From Coriobacteriales bacterium (lineage in GTDB: Bacteria; Actinomycetota; Coriobacteriia; Coriobacteriales; UBA8131), in assembly GCA_031277035.1 (NCBI GenBank), contig JAISLY010000025.1, forward strand, positions 32,068 to 96,067: a DNA stretch of 64,000 bases. Direction: 5' to 3'. The notes beneath the pieces are model-generated. The model was given only the letters and a program-made list of their open reading frames with translations, searched no databases and was not told the origin of the DNA. Positions within the stretch are counted from its first letter, which is position 1. The number at the start of each line of letters is the position of its first letter. This document shows, one piece after another, positions 50,814 to 61,271 of the stretch. The translations under genes were made by a program, and so were the position numbers.

Positions 50814-51266
50814 ATGGATTACACACTGGAGATAGTTATCGACGAGCAGGCGAAGGTGCCGCGCCTTGTCATCTACACCGCCTGGCTCACCGACGAGGTG
50901 CAACAGCTGGCACGGCGGCTCGGCGCGGGCGCAAAAGGTTGCGACCGGCTGCTCGGCTACCGCGAGGAAGATGTGGTGCTCCTTGAGCCGGACGAGGTGT
51001 ACAGCTTCTTCACGCAGGGTCAGACCGTGCAGGCGCGCATCAAGGGGAGCACCGTCCGGGTCAAGCACCGCCTCTACGAGCTGGAAGAAATGCTTGCGGG
51101 CACGTCCTTTATCCGCATCTCAAACGCCGAGATTGTGAACTTTAAGAAGGTACGTAGCTTTGAGCTCAGTATCGCTGGCACCATCAGTCTGCGCCTGAGC
51201 GACGGCTCGTGCTCCTATGTCTCGCGCCGCAACGTCAAGGCCATCAAGGAGTACCTGGGTATCTGA
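50814..51266 (+). CDS. LytTR-domain DNA-binding protein
   Basis: LYELEEMLAGTSFIRISNAEIVNFKKV...LRLSDGSCSYVSRRNVKAIKEYL. Confidence 0.75.
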   Translation: MDYTLEIVIDEQAKVPRLVIYTAWLTDEVQQLARRLGAGAKGCDRLLGYREEDVVLLEPDEVYSFFTQGQTVQARIKGSTVRVKHRLYELEEMLAGTSFIRISNAEIVNFKKVRSFELSIAGTISLRLSDGSCSYVSRRNVKAIKEYLGI

Positions 51267-51333
51267 GGGTTATAGAGCTATCGCGTGATTATGGGAACAC
51301 CGTTGAGGAACTATCGAGGAATCGAGGAACATC

Positions 51334-51918
51334 ATGAAAACAACCGCCCACAGCAACAACGACAATAGCAGCAGCAACAACAATAGCAACAACAGCAACG
51401 GCAACGGCGGCGGCAACAGTCGCATCGCCAAAGCTCGCAGTGCCGACAGGGGCGCTACCAACATCAGGAAGGCCATCATCACGCGGACGTTGCTGGGCTT
51501 TCCACTGGGGATAGCGATAGGCGTTGTCATCCTGCTCGGCGTGTCGTTTGCCGCTGGCGACGGCAGGCTGCATCCGGTGACACCTGCCATGCTCGCATGG
51601 ATGCCCGACGAGCTGACCGCATCCTTCTGGCAGTTTGTCCTCTGCGGCATCCTCGGCGCAGCCTGCTCGGGCTCCTCCCCCATTTTCGAGATCGGACACT
51701 GGAGCCTGACGCGTCAGACCGTCGTCCATTTCCTGGTGCTCATGAGCGTCCTCATCACCGTCGCAAGCGTCTGTGGCTGGACCTCTCCCGCCGGCTTCAG
51801 CTTCGAGGGCACACTCCTCTACCTGGCGATTGCCGCCCTCGTCTACCTCGTCATCTGGACAAGCATGACCCTGTACTGGCGGAACTGGGTAAAAAAGGCA
51901 AACGCCCGCCTCAAGTGA
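51334..51918 (+). CDS. DUF3021-like small membrane protein (usual LytTR partner) with an N/S-rich N-terminus
   Basis: Four predicted TM helices, sitting immediately downstream of the LytTR gene. The assignment rests on context and topology only. Confidence 0.5.
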   Translation: MKTTAHSNNDNSSSNNNSNNSNGNGGGNSRIAKARSADRGATNIRKAIITRTLLGFPLGIAIGVVILLGVSFAAGDGRLHPVTPAMLAWMPDELTASFWQFVLCGILGAACSGSSPIFEIGHWSLTRQTVVHFLVLMSVLITVASVCGWTSPAGFSFEGTLLYLAIAALVYLVIWTSMTLYWRNWVKKANARLK

Positions 51919-52088
51919 AGGCGCGTATGTATCGGTCGTGCCTTACTCTGGTTCTGGTCGGCGTTTGACTCGGTTGCTCTCAGTCGTGACGGCGCTCAGA
52001 AGAACATCCTGTCACCGAATAATGTATGAAAACATCAAGAATACTGATAGAATATCTTCAGCGTATTGAACGTCGAAGGGAATGCCCC

Positions 52089-52361
52089 ATGCCACAAATC
52101 AAGAGCAGCACCGACTTGAGGAACAACTACAACGACATCTCGATATTCTGTCACGAAAGCGCTGAGCCGGTTTTCATCACAAAAAACGGACGAGGCGACC
52201 TGGCGGTCATGAGCATCGATCTCTACGAGGATTTGGTCGCACAACGGGAGCTTCACGAATTGCTTGACAGCGGCTTACGGGATATTAGCGCTGGCAGAAC
52301 ACAACCTGCCGGGAAAGTCTTTGCCGCGCTGAGAGCCGACTTGGACAATGACACATTATAG
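52089..52361 (+). CDS. Type II antitoxin, Phd/YefM-RelB type
   Basis: MPQIKSSTDLRNNYNDISIFCHESAEPVFITKNGRGDLAVMSIDLYE. Overlaps the toxin gene by 14 nt. Confidence 0.75.
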   Translation: MPQIKSSTDLRNNYNDISIFCHESAEPVFITKNGRGDLAVMSIDLYEDLVAQRELHELLDSGLRDISAGRTQPAGKVFAALRADLDNDTL

Positions 52362-52662
52362 CGTCGAACTGTCCAAAAGTGCCGAGTTGGATCTCCGGGA
52401 AACCATGCACTACATCTCGGAGAACCTTAAAGCACCAGCGGCGGCAAAAAGACTGCTGGATGAAATCGAGCGGGCAGTTAAAAACCTTGAGGAAAATCCA
52501 GCCAGATGCGCCCTTGCCCGCGACAAGCGCCTGGCCGATTCTGGCCACCGTTGGATTAAAGCAAAGAACTACCTCGTTTTCTTTGTTATCGACGAGAACA
52601 GCAAAACCGTGATGGTTTCCAGAATACTTTACGGAAGAAGAAATTGGGCGCACCTTTTGTAA
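52348..52662 (+). CDS. Type II toxin, RelE/ParE family
   Basis: YSVELSKSAELDLRETMHYI...YLVFFVIDENSKTVMVSRILYGRRN. Confidence 0.8.
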   Translation: MTHYSVELSKSAELDLRETMHYISENLKAPAAAKRLLDEIERAVKNLEENPARCALARDKRLADSGHRWIKAKNYLVFFVIDENSKTVMVSRILYGRRNWAHLL

Positions 52663-52748: not shown

Positions 52749-55502
52749 TCAGACGGGATAGCCGTTTTGAAGGAGATGGCCAAAGTCCTCGGAGACGTGG
52801 AGGTCTTGCCAGTTGCTCATGATGCACAACGCATCGATGCTTTTCTGCTGACGCGTGATGCTGCTCATCTCAATGATGGTCTGAAGCGAGCGCGAGCCGT
52901 GGCGGTACTCCCGTACAAAGACAAAGGCGTCGACCACCGCGTCGTCAACCGGCAGATAGCGATCATCCCCCTTGCCGATGCCGCACTTGGCCTCGAGCAC
53001 CGCTCGCAGAAGGAGTGCGCGTCTGATGCACACCTCCAGCGCCGCCTTGTCAAACTCGCCGCTGGCGTCGAAGGGGAAGCGCACAGATGCCTCGGCAGCA
53101 GGCGCGGGTGCGGGTGCTGCGGGGGCACCGGCCGCGGGCGAGGCGGGCGCGGCGGCGGCACATCCTGCCACCTCGTCGAGCTCGGGGTTCAGCCCGAGCA
53201 CGTCGATATAGCCCCGTATCCGACTCAGGAAGTCGAGGCCCTTCGCCTCCCGGTCACGCTCCGCCTGCCTGCGAAAATGCTCCCAGTTCTTGTTAATGCC
53301 GCCGGCAAAGACAAATATCGCCCGCCCCAGATAGTGTGTCACGCCGTTCTCGTAGAACTTCCCGTCCTGCATCGGCGCGAGAAACTGCTTGAGCCAATAG
53401 TAGGGCTGGCCGTTTTTCTGCGCGTCAAACTCGTCGAAGAACACGATGGGCAGCCGTCCCTGCAGGCCGGTGTCGCGCACATGGTGGTAGATGTTGACAA
53501 GGTCATGCTCGCTGTCCATCTGCGAGAGGTTGCACTCGATAAACTCGGTCGCAACCTCACGGCGCACCTCGCGCTCAATCTGCTTCACCACGAAGGATTT
53601 TCCCGCTCCCGGAGGGCCAAAGACGCAAAAGGAGATGGGATGGCTTGTGGCCGTATCCCGTATATAGGTCCAAAACGCATTGCGCACCACGCGCAGCTCC
53701 TCTATCTCGCGCCGCGTATAGACCAGCGAACCGCCAAAGGTCAGATGGGGTATCCGTCGCCGTTCCCGCTTGATAAAGCCGTGCTGAACGATGTCCTGGC
53801 AGTATTTGCGCAGCTCCTGAATGGTGCGGGTGCTCATATGCAGAATGCTGAAGTCCTCCTCTCCAAGGATCTCCCGAGGTATCGTCACCTCGGCCGGCAG
53901 ACGCAGGCCCGCCACACTCTCCCCCTCCTGTGCCTGCCGCGCGGCACACATCGCCTCGGTGACAATCCGATAGGGAAACTCGAGGACACAGCGATTGATG
54001 GAGCGCTTCCACTGCTCGTTGCCACAGCGGTAGTCCTTGAGGAGAAAGCCGGTTTCTTTGAGCTTGCGAATCCCCACAAGTCCACTTCGCACTGCCCGAT
54101 ACAACGCGTTTCGCAGGGCATCCAGGCGGGCGTCTGCGGATGTGTCGGGAGCGGAAGGGGCGCCCGCCGCGTCTGCCGCACCTGCCACGCCCGCCACGTC
54201 TGCCGCAGTAGGCACGCCCGCCACGCCCGCCACGCCCGCCGCGTCTGCCGCGTCTGCCACGCCCGCCACGTCTGCCGCAGCCTGGGCTGCCCTGCTGACC
54301 GCAGACAGCTCTTTGACAAGAGCCGCCTGCAAGGTGATGACCTCGCCAAAGGTCTGATGTGCTCCCGGCTGAAAATCGCCTTCAATCTCACTGCTGTAGA
54401 AAAACAGTCGGTGCTCTTCCCTGGAGGACACCAGGCAGCCGTTGTGGTTAAAGCAGACGACGACAGCAAGAAAATCGCCGGCCTTCTCACACAGGCGTTC
54501 CAGGGCCACGACGGTCTGCTGGACGAGCCGTTCCCAGGAAATGCCCTGCTCAATGGGAAAACCGGCGTGTCGCAGCTCGTCGATATTCAAGACGAGCACC
54601 GTGCGGTCGATAAGGCGGGGGTAGCCCTGAAGCTCGCGCAGAAACGCCGTGGGAGCCTGTGTGCGCTCAAAGGTGGTGCGCAGGACGATGACCCGGTTCT
54701 CAAGGTCTTCGCTCGCGTCGAGCCGCTCGAGCGCAGGTATCCCCTGCACTGCGGTCATCTGTGCCGCAAGCAGAGCATCCACCTTCGCACCCTCCTGCGT
54801 GCCAGTCGAGGAGGCGGGCGGCGTGCTTGCCGCGGCCGACACAGACGCCGCGCCTGGTGTGGTCGCCGCTGACGAGTGTGCGCTGTCGCCTTCAGGAAGC
54901 CGTGTGGCGCAGAAACGGGCGGACCTGCGAGCTGCCTCAGCCGCGTCGAGCCCCGAGAAATACCGGTTGTCGCGATCCGTGTTATACCCAACGATGGTGT
55001 GGCTTGTGCAGAGGAGGTCCTCGTCACTGGTGCGTACCACGAAGCGCTCCGCCCTCCCCGACTCATCCTCACGGGTAATGCGATCGTCAAGCACCCTGCC
55101 GTAGTAGTCCTTCAGGAAAAAACGTCGAACTTTCTTGGGCTTACCATCGTCATAGGCGGGATCAAAGATGTGCTCGCCGTTATCCGCGTCGAGAAAGACC
55201 TCGCTTTCAGACAGGCTCGACGGAGCGACGACACGCGGTATCCCCTCCCACGCCGATATGGCGCGATGACGCGGGTCAGCGGTCATTGAGAGGAGGCGGA
55301 CGTCTGCCTCCATTGGCTGCATCAGGTGCTCAAGCAGCCGCTCAAGCAGATGCGCGCCCCCTTTGAGCGTAAAGGACTCCTCGACATCCCAGCGGCGATG
55401 GTGCTGTGCCCGCGCCCCGTAAGGGTCCCTCCTGTCCTCCATGGCCTCATGCTTGAGGGCATAGTCATACGATACGTCGCCAAAAACGAATACGTCAGTC
55501 AT
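52749..55502 (-). CDS. Large (about 917 aa) fusion protein: divergent ribokinase/pfkB-like N-terminal half plus C-terminal AAA+ ATPase module
   Basis: Walker A FGPPGAGKSF and Walker B LPIVFFDEFDAQ, followed by FVFAGG. The N-terminal half has VFVFGDVSYDY, GGAHLLERL, VLVLNIDELRHAG and AVVVCFNHNGCLV, which resemble pfkB strand and motif order. AGGAAA RBS before ATG 55502. The track ORF's 112-codon extension is unlikely. Confidence 0.65.
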   Translation of the reverse strand: MTDVFVFGDVSYDYALKHEAMEDRRDPYGARAQHHRRWDVEESFTLKGGAHLLERLLEHLMQPMEADVRLLSMTADPRHRAISAWEGIPRVVAPSSLSESEVFLDADNGEHIFDPAYDDGKPKKVRRFFLKDYYGRVLDDRITREDESGRAERFVVRTSDEDLLCTSHTIVGYNTDRDNRYFSGLDAAEAARRSARFCATRLPEGDSAHSSAATTPGAASVSAAASTPPASSTGTQEGAKVDALLAAQMTAVQGIPALERLDASEDLENRVIVLRTTFERTQAPTAFLRELQGYPRLIDRTVLVLNIDELRHAGFPIEQGISWERLVQQTVVALERLCEKAGDFLAVVVCFNHNGCLVSSREEHRLFFYSSEIEGDFQPGAHQTFGEVITLQAALVKELSAVSRAAQAAADVAGVADAADAAGVAGVAGVPTAADVAGVAGAADAAGAPSAPDTSADARLDALRNALYRAVRSGLVGIRKLKETGFLLKDYRCGNEQWKRSINRCVLEFPYRIVTEAMCAARQAQEGESVAGLRLPAEVTIPREILGEEDFSILHMSTRTIQELRKYCQDIVQHGFIKRERRRIPHLTFGGSLVYTRREIEELRVVRNAFWTYIRDTATSHPISFCVFGPPGAGKSFVVKQIEREVRREVATEFIECNLSQMDSEHDLVNIYHHVRDTGLQGRLPIVFFDEFDAQKNGQPYYWLKQFLAPMQDGKFYENGVTHYLGRAIFVFAGGINKNWEHFRRQAERDREAKGLDFLSRIRGYIDVLGLNPELDEVAGCAAAAPASPAAGAPAAPAPAPAAEASVRFPFDASGEFDKAALEVCIRRALLLRAVLEAKCGIGKGDDRYLPVDDAVVDAFVFVREYRHGSRSLQTIIEMSSITRQQKSIDALCIMSNWQDLHVSEDFGHLLQNGYPV

Positions 55503-55852
55503 GGTGCGTTTCCTGTCCCACAGCCTTGGGCCGTGTTGTCGTTTCATGCTATCGATATGAGCACGCAGCCGTCCGTCACGGGAATGCGCAGGCGCAGGTG
55601 TGCAGTCGCGAGTGCGCGGGTGCAGGCGCGCGAGTGCGCGAGTGCGGGCGGCGGTCAGGCTCCCCTGCCCCATTATACCGCCACTTTGCCGCGCAGGCAT
55701 TTCACACGCAGGGCGTGCCGCACGCGCGCGGCGTGCCACGCGCACGGCGTGCGACCTACTGGCTGCACGGCGGCATGCTGACGTGTACCCACGCGCGGCG
55801 TGCCACAGGGCGTGCCGCACACCCTGCGGCAGCGACATTCGACCAGAGAATG

Positions 55853-58784: not shown

Positions 58785-59161
58785 AGTCGATGTCTGCTTT
58801 CTCTGCTACGTTTCGACTGCGTCTGGTATGCTGTGGAGCTACCGCCTTACCCTTTGAGGGAGCTGTTTTCGCACAGATGACGTTTTGGCTGTTCGCCATA
58901 TCCGTTGCGATTCCGCGTGCGGTTTGCACGTGCAGGCCACCCTCAGAAGTCCTGAGCAATCCATTATCGCACAGGAGGCGGCCGGTGTGCAAACGCGGGC
59001 AGAGAAGCGCTGGCTTTGGGCAGCGCGGGCGGGGGTTGATGGGGGCGGATGGGGGCGGTTCGGGCGAGGGCGGTTCGGGCGCGGGCGGATGGGGCGGATG
59101 GCGGCGGATGGGGGCAGACAGGGGAAATCCTCATGGGCTTTTCTGCAGGTACCCCAAATGG

Positions 59162-60061
59162 TCAACTCGCGCTTTCTTCAGCGTCCTCAGACAGAAGGAA
59201 GGCAGAAGAGTAATCCGAAATAAAGTGCAGAAGTATTCCGGGCAACAGGCTGCCTGTTGCCACATAGAGACAGCCCAGCAGAACACCGACCAGAGATGTT
59301 TTGACAAAGCCTGTCGGTCCCTGATAGAGATGCCCCGCACCAAACACGATGCTTGCCACAACAATGACGACCGCAATTGGCCACGATGGGAAAACGGCAA
59401 TCAGAAGAAAATAAAGAAATCCGCGCCATACGATTTCTTCACAAATTCCTGCTGAAGCCGATAGGAAAAACCACCAGGTTTTCTCCTTTTTAGTCCGCGG
59501 TATCATGCTGGCCACCACTGAGTCGTAGTAGTTTCCAGAGGTAGTTGTGCTGAACTTCAGTTTTACCTGCTCCCTGAAATCGGCACTGACAAAATATTGA
59601 ATAATCTGGTAGAGAAGCACCACCAAAAGGCCACCACAGAAGGCAAAGGTGACAATGCGAAACCAAAGCGGACCCCAAAAGCTGAATCCGCTCAGTCCGA
59701 TTTCTAAGAGATTCACAAGGGAAAACGCACCGATCAGCAGAATGCCTGCTACCGGAATCCATGCCCCAAGAATGCCTTCTTTATAAAACTGCACTCTGCT
59801 GGCTTCGGTAATAACGGTACCCTTCAGCTTTTTAATATCGTTCATGCCTCCGATGGACAGCACGACGAGATAGGCTATAAGAACAACCAGGAGCACTACA
59901 TACACGTATTTCACACCTTTCAGGCCAAAACTGTTTCTCGTCGGGCGCTGAGGGTCGGGCGAGGGCGGGGCGGACGGGGCCGGGCGGACGCTGACGGTCA
60001 GGTGCTGATGGTCGGCCACCGCAGAGTCCTCAAAATAGCTCCCGCTGCGCCCATTTGTCAA
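59162..60061 (-). CDS. CPBP (CAAX) family intramembrane metalloprotease
   Basis: EEIVWRGFLY, FGAGHLY and LHFISD, in a multi-TM protein. Confidence 0.75.
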   Translation of the reverse strand: MTNGRSGSYFEDSAVADHQHLTVSVRPAPSAPPSPDPQRPTRNSFGLKGVKYVYVVLLVVLIAYLVVLSIGGMNDIKKLKGTVITEASRVQFYKEGILGAWIPVAGILLIGAFSLVNLLEIGLSGFSFWGPLWFRIVTFAFCGGLLVVLLYQIIQYFVSADFREQVKLKFSTTTSGNYYDSVVASMIPRTKKEKTWWFFLSASAGICEEIVWRGFLYFLLIAVFPSWPIAVVIVVASIVFGAGHLYQGPTGFVKTSLVGVLLGCLYVATGSLLPGILLHFISDYSSAFLLSEDAEESAS

Positions 60062-60185: not shown

Positions 60186-60530
60186 ATGGACATCATGCGC
60201 GCACTTGAGCAGCAGCAGATACGTACGGATCTCCCGGCCTTTGCCGTCGGCGACCGGGTAAAGGTGCATTACCGCATCATCGAAGGCAACAAGGAACGCA
60301 TCCAGGTGTTTGAAGGCGATGTTATCCGCCGCCACGGTGCAAGCAATCGCGAGACTTTCACGGTTCGCAAGCTTTCAAGCGGCATCGGCGTCGAGCGCAC
60401 CTTCCCCGTACACTCCCCCAAAATCGACCGCATCGAGGTACTGCGCCACGGTGCCGTACGCCGTGCGAAGCTCTATTACCTGCGCAACAAGATCGGAAAG
60501 GCAGCGCGCCTGCGCGAGAAGGGCTTTTAG
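60186..60530 (+). CDS. rplS: 50S ribosomal protein L19
   Basis: [13 protein letters not shown]...[29 protein letters not shown]...RRAKLYYLR. The GAGGGAAG RBS fits ATG 60186 better than 60180. Confidence 0.9.
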
Positions 60531-60533
60531 GCG

Positions 60534-61271
60534 ATTCGCAAAACCGACATCCGCGACGCTTGCGACGCCCCGAGTCCCGATCAGGAGCGAGATGCTTCGA
60601 GTCTCGGTCAGGAAGAGTATATTCCGCGCTCTGAGCAAAAACGCCTTGAGGCCCTCTACGCCGAACAGGAAGCCGCCGGCATCGACGCCTTTGTCATCGG
60701 TGTCGATGAAGTAGGGCGCGGTTCGGTGGCCGGCCCGCTGACCGTCGGCGCCGTCTGCCTGCCGCTCCGCCCACAGATTGCGTGGCTCAACGACTCCAAA
60801 AAACTCTCCGCAAAGCGCCGCGAGGAGCTTGACTTGCGGATACGTGCAAGCGCCCTGGCGCTGGAAATCGCCCATATTCCCCCTGAGGACATCGATCGCG
60901 ACGGAATGGCCGCCTCGCTCAAAAAGGCGATGCGCGCCGCTCTTGACGCCTGCTGTGCCGCCCGGTGTCTTGAGCCCGATCTTGTGCTGATCGACGGCAT
61001 ACCGCTTGGCGTCCATCCAAAGGAGCGAAGTGTCGTCAAAGGCGATGCCCGGGTTGCCTGTATCGCCGCCGCGTCCATCGTCGCAAAGGTTGCCCGCGAC
61101 GCCCTGATGCGTGAGGCGGACGCGTCGTTTCCGGGCTATGGCTTCGCTTCGAACAAAGGCTACGCCTCCAGACAACACATTGCCGCCATACGCGAAAAGG
61201 GTCTGACGACCTTTCACCGTGCCAGTTTTTGTCGAGGATTTTTCCAGGAGCAAATCACCTTCGACTGCTGA
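60534..61271 (+). CDS. rnhB: Ribonuclease HII (start codon unresolved, see findings)
   Basis: The catalytic motif IGVDEVGRGSVAGPL is encoded at about 60696-60740, upstream of the GTG (60726) used by the ORF track. DSKKLS and PGYGFASNKGYAS follow later. 60534 is a candidate ATT start. Confidence 0.75.
   Translation: MRKTDIRDACDAPSPDQERDASSLGQEEYIPRSEQKRLEALYAEQEAAGIDAFVIGVDEVGRGSVAGPLTVGAVCLPLRPQIAWLNDSKKLSAKRREELDLRIRASALALEIAHIPPEDIDRDGMAASLKKAMRAALDACCAARCLEPDLVLIDGIPLGVHPKERSVVKGDARVACIAAASIVAKVARDALMREADASFPGYGFASNKGYASRQHIAAIREKGLTTFHRASFCRGFFQEQITFDC

Follow-up and report, generated by a model that had tools for sequence, protein, structure and literature searches.

The gene that we describe lies in a 64,000-nucleotide stretch of DNA from a Coriobacteriales bacterium (contig JAISLY010000025.1, positions 32,068 to 96,067), hereafter called the window. 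It encodes a protein of 917 amino acids (aa) with a predicted ribokinase-fold domain in its N-terminal half, followed by an AAA+ ATPase module. On one side of the gene, Pfam searches identified rimP, nusA, ylxR, and infB, then genes for a LytTR regulator, a DUF3021 protein, and a Phd/YefM plus ParE pair; miaA and miaB lie on the other side, on the same strand as the gene. These searches confirmed the context genes named in a preliminary description that had been made from the sequence alone.

The gene model and protein layout

The longest open reading frame (ORF) on the minus strand (52749-55838, 1,029 aa) begins at an upstream ATG at 55838, and this start was rejected by the alignment of homologues. 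Five homologues (64 to 81% identity), each from a metagenome-assembled genome of the Coriobacteriales, begin at MTDVFVFGD, the first residues of the product that starts at the ATG at 55502, and we therefore retained the 917-aa protein. This agrees with the size and limits first given for the gene, and all the motifs quoted in the preliminary description were found at their places in the translation. Across the six genomes, full-length identity is kept at 64 to 81%, the motifs are all intact, and length changes occur only in loops. The features of the gene are as follows, in the order of the protein.

52749..55502, minus strand: entire gene, encoding 917 aa and ending in TGA (ORF list and translation)
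54033..55502, minus strand: N-terminal ribokinase-fold (pfkB-like) domain with a beta-sheet lid, residues 1-490 (AlphaFold2 model, Foldseek)
55461..55493, minus strand: beta1 motif VFVFGDVSYDY, residues 4-14 (translation, family alignment)
Residues 48-49: GG motif (translation)
54738..54947, minus strand: low-complexity insert 1, residues 186-255, Ala/Ser/Thr/Pro-rich, predicted to be disordered (alignment gaps)
54561..54596, minus strand: element in the NxxE position, LVLNIDELRHAG, a strand and then a helix, residues 303-314 (alignment, model)
Residues 306-314: NIDELRHAG, within that element, in the NxxE position (translation)
54306..54407, minus strand: GAGD-equivalent region, LFFYSSEIEGDFQPGAHQTFGEVITLQAALVKEL, residues 366-399 (model, family alignment, translation)
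Residues 372-376: late G-D segment EIEGD (translation)
54129..54305, minus strand: low-complexity insert 2, residues 400-458, (V/A)AG-type repeats
53703..54032, minus strand: helical linker and pre-Walker region, residues 491-600 (helices modeled with moderate confidence)
53178..53702, minus strand: alpha/beta core of the AAA+ module, residues 601-775 (Pfam AAA, invariant columns, model)
53595-53618, minus strand: Walker A, GPPGAGKS, residues 629-636 (translation)
53424-53447, minus strand: Walker B, IVFFDEFD, residues 686-693 (translation)
53085..53177, minus strand: low-complexity insert 3, residues 776-806, rich in Ala and Pro, separating the ATPase core from the lid
52752..53084, minus strand: helical lid of the AAA+ module, residues 807-917, where the protein ends (invariant columns, model)

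The large low-complexity inserts noticed earlier are indeed present and number three: two loops that interrupt the ribokinase-fold domain (inserts 1 and 2) and one inside the AAA+ half (residues 776 to 806). All three are unconserved, vary in length among homologues, are predicted to be disordered, and have a low predicted local distance difference test score (pLDDT), which falls below 50 at residues 200 to 234 of insert 1. About 12 tandem copies of the 9-nt unit CGCCCGCCA (54161-54284), in which longer periods of 27, 36, and 45 are also seen, encode insert 2, and homologues have a far shorter insert or none there, which suggests a recent expansion by slippage. The linker region holds a DRxEIExxR motif that leads into the ATPase and is conserved throughout the family.

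A ribokinase-fold domain joined to a Clp-like AAA+ module

We then analyzed the N-terminal half, which had been likened to pfkB kinases from its motifs. An AlphaFold model of residues 1 to 492, based on an alignment of 42 family N-domains, was confident outside the inserts (pLDDT, 78.8; predicted template modeling score [pTM], 0.80). When this model was compared to the PDB with Foldseek, the top 50 matches were all pfkB-family kinases (probability of 1.00; expect value [E] from 1e-7 to 2e-5), out of 171 matches at E ≤ 1e-3, and the matches included HldA, ribokinases, adenosine kinases, fructokinases, PFK-2, and ketohexokinase. The predicted structure thus assigns the N-domain to the ribokinase/pfkB fold and indicates that the likeness is not due to chance at the fold level. 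No sequence profile gave a corresponding match. The Pfam PfkB profile did not match the window protein at E ≤ 1 or any of 10 relatives at E ≤ 0.01, profiles of the N-domain family found nothing among PDB sequences at E ≤ 10, and NCBIfam gave no significant match for the window protein. With hhalign, the N-domain was compared to Escherichia coli RbsK (query sequence 100% identical to 1GQT) with a probability of 0.5%, and only the beta1 stretch was aligned, not significantly; the DNA of the loci examined contained no canonical pfkB gene for a profile-profile test. The divergent pfkB-like half is therefore borne out at the fold level by AlphaFold and Foldseek, without a sequence-profile match. 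Profile searches over residues 1 to 490 assigned no unrelated known domain and likewise failed to return PfkB.

The motifs of the N-domain were traced on the family alignment. G8 and D13 are spaced as G11 and D16 of E. coli ribokinase, an equivalence at the level of the motif only, and among the 42 sequences G8 is present in 42, D9 in 39, D13 in 36, and G49 in 36. N306 and E309 of the NxxE-position element are invariant in the six Coriobacteriales proteins; in the wider family, the Asn is found in 17/42 sequences and an acidic residue at position 309 in 34/42, while L310 and R311 are nearly invariant. The region comprising residues 366 to 399 was equated with the DTxGAGD anion-hole helix of pfkB kinases from the order of elements in the model, not by superposition. 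It contains an inserted loop bearing the near-invariant E374 and places E387 at the position of the catalytic Asp. The window protein has TFGE (G386-E387) there instead of GAGD, and no GAGD motif is present, so that the absence of a canonical anion hole, remarked on earlier, is clear from the translation. Family members differ in the residue at the catalytic Asp position (Y, L, A, E, or S), and E387 is invariant within the Coriobacteriales clade.

The residues conserved family-wide in the N-domain are G8, D9, D13, G48-G49, L310, R311, S322, W323, E324, G355, E374, G386, R479, and G485, and the near-invariant ones R311, S322-W323-E324, E374 (in the inserted loop), and R479 are specific to the family. 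Judging from the order of elements in the model, the conserved polar residues D9, D13, GG48-49, R311, S322-W323-E324, E374, and R479 would line the substrate/ATP cleft of the pfkB fold. The family thus shares with pfkB/ribokinase kinases the predicted alpha/beta core with a beta-sheet lid, the beta1 G-x4-D, and the GG dipeptide, and a strand-then-helix element with N-x-x-E is present in the clade of the window protein. The family differs from them in lacking the GAGD anion hole and the catalytic Asp, in its lack of a profile match and its identity of only ∼10%, in the E374 loop and the S-W-E motif, which have no pfkB counterpart, and in the fusion to an AAA+ module, since our searches turned up no described pfkB kinase with such a fusion.

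An AAA+ module with Walker A and B motifs had been assigned to the C-terminal third, and this was upheld by the Pfam AAA match (PF00004; E, 5.8e-7; 30.5 bits for a cut-off of 21.2), by the intact motifs, and by the predicted structure. Other profiles, namely Torsin, BrxL, and RtcR, matched the window protein weakly and at the level of the P-loop. An AlphaFold model of residues 493 to 917, built on 27 family sequences, had a pLDDT of 80.5 and a pTM of 0.77, with a pLDDT of ≥90 in the core, and its best PDB matches by Foldseek were human CLPB/Skd3, nucleotide-binding domain 2 (NBD2) of ClpB, ClpC1, RuvB, Lon, and ClpX, with CLPB (7xbk) at the top (E, 6e-7). On the strength of this model, we assign the module with moderate confidence to the Clp/Hsp100-NBD2-like (HCLR) type, the limit being that dynein and classical AAA modules also score. 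Membership among the STAND NTPases gained no support, as relatives gave only subthreshold nSTAND_NTPase5 matches (17 to 22 bits for a cut-off of 34), STAND-type C-terminal repeats were not found, and the structure is closest to Clp-type modules.

In the model, FVFAGGIN forms the sensor-1 strand of the core, and two short strands (residues 714 to 717 and 720 to 723) between the helix that follows Walker B and sensor 1 correspond to the pre-sensor-1 beta-hairpin. G629, G632, G634, K635, D690, and E691 are invariant in 86 diverse family members, as are the FLAPMQDG helix with the hairpin, R761 (in DFLSRIRG), and R871 (in HGSRSL); G869 is the second invariant residue of the lid motif YRHGSRSL. By analogy with Clp/Hsp100 motifs, we take R761 to be a candidate arginine finger and R871 to be sensor 2. 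As modeled, the module looks like an active, ring-forming ATPase.

Clp/Hsp100 NBD2 modules are therefore the nearest comparison, with the best structural matches and both Walker motifs in common. We presume that the FLAPMQDG helix and hairpin resemble the LLQVLDDG region of ClpB NBD2, that DFLSRIRG resembles the "PEFLNRID" arginine-finger motif of Clp proteins, and that the sensor-2 motif is of the GxRxL type. In contrast, the sequence likeness is marginal (E of 0.03 to CLPB), the window protein lacks a GYVG-type pore loop, a ClpP-binding loop, a middle domain, and a protease domain, and its N-terminal domain is unrelated to Clp N-domains.

The family, its RyR-bearing branches, and the variable locus

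To place the protein in a family, we searched 1.84 billion cluster representatives (50% identity) exhaustively with HMMER. At E ≤ 1e-3, 2,906 clusters from bacteria and archaea were returned, of which 1,785 also passed E ≤ 1e-30. The N-domain, ATPase, and lid blocks are common to nearly all of the best 150 members, so the combination of a ribokinase fold with AAA+ is neither unusual nor rare and defines a family that comprises at least 2,900 clusters. Source annotations of family members read only "AAA family ATPase" or "hypothetical protein," and the nearest clusters beyond the Coriobacteriales carry the labels Bathyarchaeota or Candidatus Termiticorpusculum, Nitrososphaerota, and Firmicutes. 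A word-indexed homologue search recovered only six close Coriobacteriales proteins and one partial homologue, even with an 86-sequence profile, probably because low-complexity words crowded the candidate list. Some close relatives (P0013, 1,160 aa; P0014, 923 aa; P0019, 1,052 aa; also at L011 and L032), which belong to the members without RyR domains described below, carry 250 to 430 extra residues between core and lid; P0014 weakly matches Intein_splicing (E, 8e-4), and an intein within the AAA+ module of such relatives is possible. A phage origin was considered and is not supported, the viral matches being one viral contig and one unnamed viral structure.

That the architecture does not correspond to a described system, as had been supposed, held in PADLOC, NCBIfam, Pfam, and the literature searched. 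In PADLOC-DB v2.0.0, the window protein matched only at the P-loop level (RtcR, 0.0034; QatA, 0.0089; IetA, 0.059) and did not match the ThsA or ThsB models, two other family members gave no match at all, and there is no model for the family; the literature searched contained no description of a fusion of a ribokinase fold with AAA+. RtcR (CARF-AAA+-helix-turn-helix) shares with the window protein the layout of a Rossmann-like small-molecule-binding domain placed N-terminally to an AAA+ ring ATPase, and its weak PADLOC match (E, 0.0034) falls over the P-loop region. However, this match spans only ∼55 residues around Walker A, the AAA+ module of the window protein is Clp-like and not of the sigma-54 activator type, the helix-turn-helix is missing, and the sensor fold is ribokinase-like and not CARF.

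We then looked into the branches of the family that carry additional domains. Tandem C-terminal RyR domains (PF02026) are present in 56/155 top family members and are missing from the 36 family clusters nearest to the window protein, archaeal ones included. A 2026 preprint (PMC13232231) shows RyR domains to be pockets for cyclic ADP-ribose (cADPR), the 2'/3' forms of which are bound or cleaved by those of phage proteins, and the parts list of TIR/cADPR signaling comprises RyR, TIR, SLOG-like, SLATT, and channel-like proteins (PMC13232231; bioRxiv 10.64898/2025.12.03.692087). Among 79 metagenome loci, 66 family members have RyR and 13 are RyR-less, and for 41/66 of the former, a STAND/TPR/WD40 protein or a partner with RyR lies no more than three genes away. 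When 91 codirectional neighbors of family members were classified with Pfam, the families counted were TrkA_N (12/91), RyR (10/91), TIR_2 (8/91), AAA_16 of STAND type (7/91), WD40 (6/91), DUF4062 (6/91), and NACHT (5/91). In 13 loci (including L016 3120-3677 and L020 7642-8199), a gene for a SLOG-like protein of ∼185 aa, with weak matches to DprA and YAcAr of the SLOG superfamily, is located directly downstream of the RyR-bearing member. The same domain forms the N terminus of SLATT two-transmembrane proteins of ∼570 aa and is fused to the C terminus of the ATPase in L059 (residues 706 to 902), L086, and L076. SLOG-like plus SLATT, RelA/SpoT-SLOG-RyR, and TIR proteins are all found near family members. 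Given that RyR domains are cADPR pockets, we read these neighborhoods of the RyR-bearing branches as conflict systems of the TIR/cADPR type.

Two kinds of neighboring protein are recorded here in their own right. Family members are repeatedly accompanied by TrkA_N (NAD-binding Rossmann) proteins that end in an RyR domain (e.g., L038 10171-12360) and could be channel-type effectors or regulators gated via RyR. At L081 (1870-4461, minus strand), an 863-aa neighbor contains RelA/SpoT, TPR, SLOG (LSDAT_prok), and RyR domains and matches the PADLOC candidate model PDC-S33 (E, 2e-17). The neighbors of RyR-less relatives are mixed (radical SAM, aminotransferase, KAS III, and TldD), and a conserved partner gene in these relatives was not supported, given this heterogeneity.

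The likeness of the family to Thoeris-type/RyDEP systems accordingly lies in other branches, where the same core is followed by tandem RyR domains and flanked by TIR, SLOG-like, SLATT, and TrkA_N-RyR genes. The window protein differs in having no RyR, SLOG, or Macro sensor, no TIR signal producer among the window neighbors scanned, and no ThsA/ThsB model match, and in our searches, neither a ribokinase-fold nor an AAA+ domain turned up in any Thoeris effector.

At the locus itself, three features adjoin the gene.

50814-51918, plus strand: LytTR-only regulator and DUF3021 membrane protein, convergent with the gene
52026-52662, plus strand: Phd/YefM antitoxin and ParE toxin, genes overlapping by 14 nt, G+C content of 0.50
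55503..55852, minus strand: spacer of 350 bp from the miaA stop codon to the start of the gene, both genes being on the same strand

The LytTR and DUF3021 genes, which we presume to resemble pairs of a LytTR regulator and a membrane inhibitor of the HdrRM/BrsRM type, also adjoin the two 81%-identical homologues (L002 11461-12576; L004 8891-9962). The outer flanks differ, these homologues having Tad-pilus genes on the side opposite to DUF3021/LytTR, and LytTR, DUF3021, and the gene may move as a block. The G+C content of the gene is 0.62 and that of the core operons 0.63 to 0.64. The toxin-antitoxin pair, at 0.50 among genes of about 0.62, therefore looks to have been inserted later, between DUF3021 and the gene. 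One of the two 81%-identical homologues has no adjoining toxin-antitoxin pair and the other has a RelB/PemK pair upstream, on the other side. The adjacency that had been taken as a pointer to function is thus not conserved, with families and sides differing, and we rejected a functional toxin-antitoxin link on these grounds and on that of the G+C content. The spacer has direct repeats at 55602-55752 (periods of 8, 16, and 22 nt) and yielded no terminator, sigma-70-like promoter, or Rfam match; nothing was found in it that would indicate a riboswitch or other known RNA. Elsewhere in the window, two ORFs have no Pfam match (60375-61253, minus strand, 292 aa; 58790-59455, plus strand, 221 aa), and the second overlaps a CAAX-protease (Rce1-like) gene on the opposite strand and may not be a real gene.

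The 68%-identical homologue follows an rfb operon, and the 64%-identical one is flanked by genes for a Flg_new protein and a molybdopterin oxidoreductase. In the three nearest MiaA relatives (75%, 71%, and 65% identity), DUF1015-SpoVS-miaB-miaA is kept upstream, and miaA is followed by FdhE and formate dehydrogenase, by VanZ, YhcG, and AbiEi/AbiEii, or by DapF, the gene under study being absent after miaA from all three. Universal conservation at this position, which would have pointed to a housekeeping role, was thus not seen in these relatives. Close relatives of the gene were found at only 3 loci among 185,579 species genomes, in a scan whose patterns are specific to close relatives and say little on the distribution of the wider family. 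Since the homologues have different contexts and other genes follow miaA in relatives, the gene is an accessory gene, as first proposed, at a variable junction, rather than a housekeeping gene conserved at this site. In this lineage, accessory and defense genes may land repeatedly in the site after miaA; at L090 (6471-11913), with the 71%-identical MiaA, that site holds VanZ, a DUF1016/YhcG-type protein, and AbiEi/AbiEii.

A proposed ligand-regulated remodeler and its alternatives

We propose that the protein is a ligand-regulated AAA+ remodeler from a conflict-associated family, a reading that we find plausible if perhaps not quite probable. It would be the minimal core of a large uncharacterized family of ring-forming Clp/Hsp100-NBD2-like AAA+ ATPases in which each subunit of the ring carries an N-terminal ribokinase-fold domain. 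The cleft of this domain would no longer be that of a canonical sugar kinase and may still bind a small molecule of the ribose, nucleoside, or sugar-phosphate type. Occupancy of the cleft would control the assembly or the ATP turnover of the ring, whose target for remodeling would be a protein or a nucleoprotein. As a whole, the family would belong to the nucleotide-signaling conflict (antivirus) systems, and the Coriobacteriales copy would represent a branch without RyR and partners, presumably under purifying selection at a variable chromosomal junction. The analysis itself shows the gene model, the domain folds, the intact ATPase motifs, the size of the family, the neighbor counts, and the variable context; ligand binding, hexamer formation, remodeling activity, and a defense role are properties that we infer for the protein. 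The preliminary description had suggested an anti-phage or stress-response function from a large NTPase fusion beside a toxin-antitoxin pair; a conflict role can be argued from the RyR-bearing branches, and neither the window locus nor the pair supports it.

Several observations weigh against this proposal. At the level of the fold, the TM-scores of the N-domain in Foldseek are modest (about 0.45 on the target) and go with an identity of about 10%, and the invariance of N306, E309, and E387 in the Coriobacteriales clade suggests that residual kinase chemistry is possible. In the AAA+ module, no GYVG-type aromatic pore loop was recognizable, an invariant NLSQ(M/F) lying between strand 2 and the next helix, which makes substrate threading uncertain. 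With respect to defense, the window protein ends after the AAA+ lid without an RyR domain in a local search with hidden Markov models (HMMs), RyR and SLOG-like HMMs found nothing in the six-frame translation of the 64-kb window, and no TIR domain was detected among the window neighbors scanned. Moreover, 11/13 RyR-less loci are without a conflict-type neighbor, which means that the inference of defense is borrowed from other branches. PADLOC, NCBIfam, and Pfam yielded only the generic AAA match, viral matches were limited to one contig and one structure, and the G+C content of the gene (0.62) matches that of the core genome.

The main rival is a smaller but real possibility, and the data do not separate it from the ligand-regulated remodeler. 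The ribokinase-fold domain would here be an active, rewired enzyme, a kinase or other transferase whose substrate is a ribose-containing metabolite or immune signal and whose catalytic carboxylate is E374 or E387; the AAA+ module would be an oligomerization switch, and RyR would be the sensor elsewhere in the family. The order of N-domain, NTPase, and C-terminal RyR in 56/155 members is that of effector-NTPase-sensor immune proteins, and RyR, as a cADPR pocket, already provides a separate sensor in those branches. The charged cleft residues D9, D13, R311, E324, E374, and R479 are invariant, as are N306, E309, and E387 in the clade of the window protein. An enzyme is harder to reconcile with the variable position of the catalytic Asp across the family, with an NxxE Asn in only 17/42 sequences, with the lack of a PfkB match even at E ≤ 1, and with the missing RyR sensor of the window protein. 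That the protein is instead a metabolic or housekeeping chaperone, i.e., an ATP-driven remodeler tuned by a sugar or nucleoside metabolite, with conflict neighbors that are coincidental or specific to the RyR lineage, seems to us rather unlikely. Its G+C content equals that of core genes, it lies behind miaB-miaA in the same orientation and no terminator is predicted in the interval, the neighbors of RyR-less relatives are metabolic or miscellaneous, and PADLOC has no match. Against this reading, close relatives were found at only 3 loci among the 185,579 species genomes, none of the three nearest MiaA relatives has the gene at the corresponding site, its position differs in every more distant homologue, and the family is strongly associated with TIR, RyR, SLOG-like, SLATT, and STAND genes.

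A role together with the adjoining genes, either as a three-part unit of Phd/ParE toxin-antitoxin and chaperone or with LytTR and DUF3021, is improbable. LytTR and DUF3021 adjoin the gene in the window and in the two 81%-identical loci, and a toxin-antitoxin pair adjoins it in 2/5 loci, but these pairs are of different families and on opposite sides, one locus has none, and that of the window, with its G+C content of 0.50, looks like a later insertion. LytTR/DUF3021 are also absent from the loci of the 68%- and 64%-identical homologues and of all distant relatives, and the convergent orientation precludes a shared operon. Very improbable, finally, is a decaying, nonfunctional remnant of an RyR-bearing system that has lost its sensor and partners, even though the protein has no RyR domain or partner genes and three loops expanded by low-complexity sequence, one of them via repeat slippage. 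The reading frame is intact with all ATPase motifs present, full-length identity of 64 to 81% is maintained in six genomes with length changes only in loops, and the 36 nearest family clusters, archaeal ones included, are also without RyR, which makes the RyR-less form a stable lineage.

Returning to the ligand-regulated remodeler and the family to which it belongs, an AAA+ NTPase with an appended sensor or effector domain is an architecture of a known kind, and the version with a ribokinase fold is new. The copies of Pfam, NCBIfam, and PADLOC that were searched contain no entry for this family, which numbers at least 2,900 clusters at 50% identity, and the literature searched does not describe it. 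With a degenerate ribokinase fold joined to a Clp-like ring, the repertoire of AAA+ machines would gain a sensor or enzyme module of a new sort. A bolder version, which we consider unlikely, is that the family constitutes a hitherto undescribed class of immune proteins with ties to ADP-ribose-derived signaling, in which the rewired ribokinase-fold domain would bind or chemically modify a ribose-containing signal or metabolite and so drive the Clp-like ring, and that the RyR-less form would be a self-contained, single-gene defense or stress system sensing its ligand directly via the cleft. The link of the family to RyR, TIR, and SLOG-type signaling is the most interesting result of this analysis. 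Because RyR domains are cADPR pockets and the RyR-bearing branches sit with TIR, SLOG-like, SLATT, and STAND genes, the family is a concrete candidate for a new class of effectors or regulators in TIR/cADPR immunity, and its minimal Coriobacteriales form would reveal what the core does without accessories.

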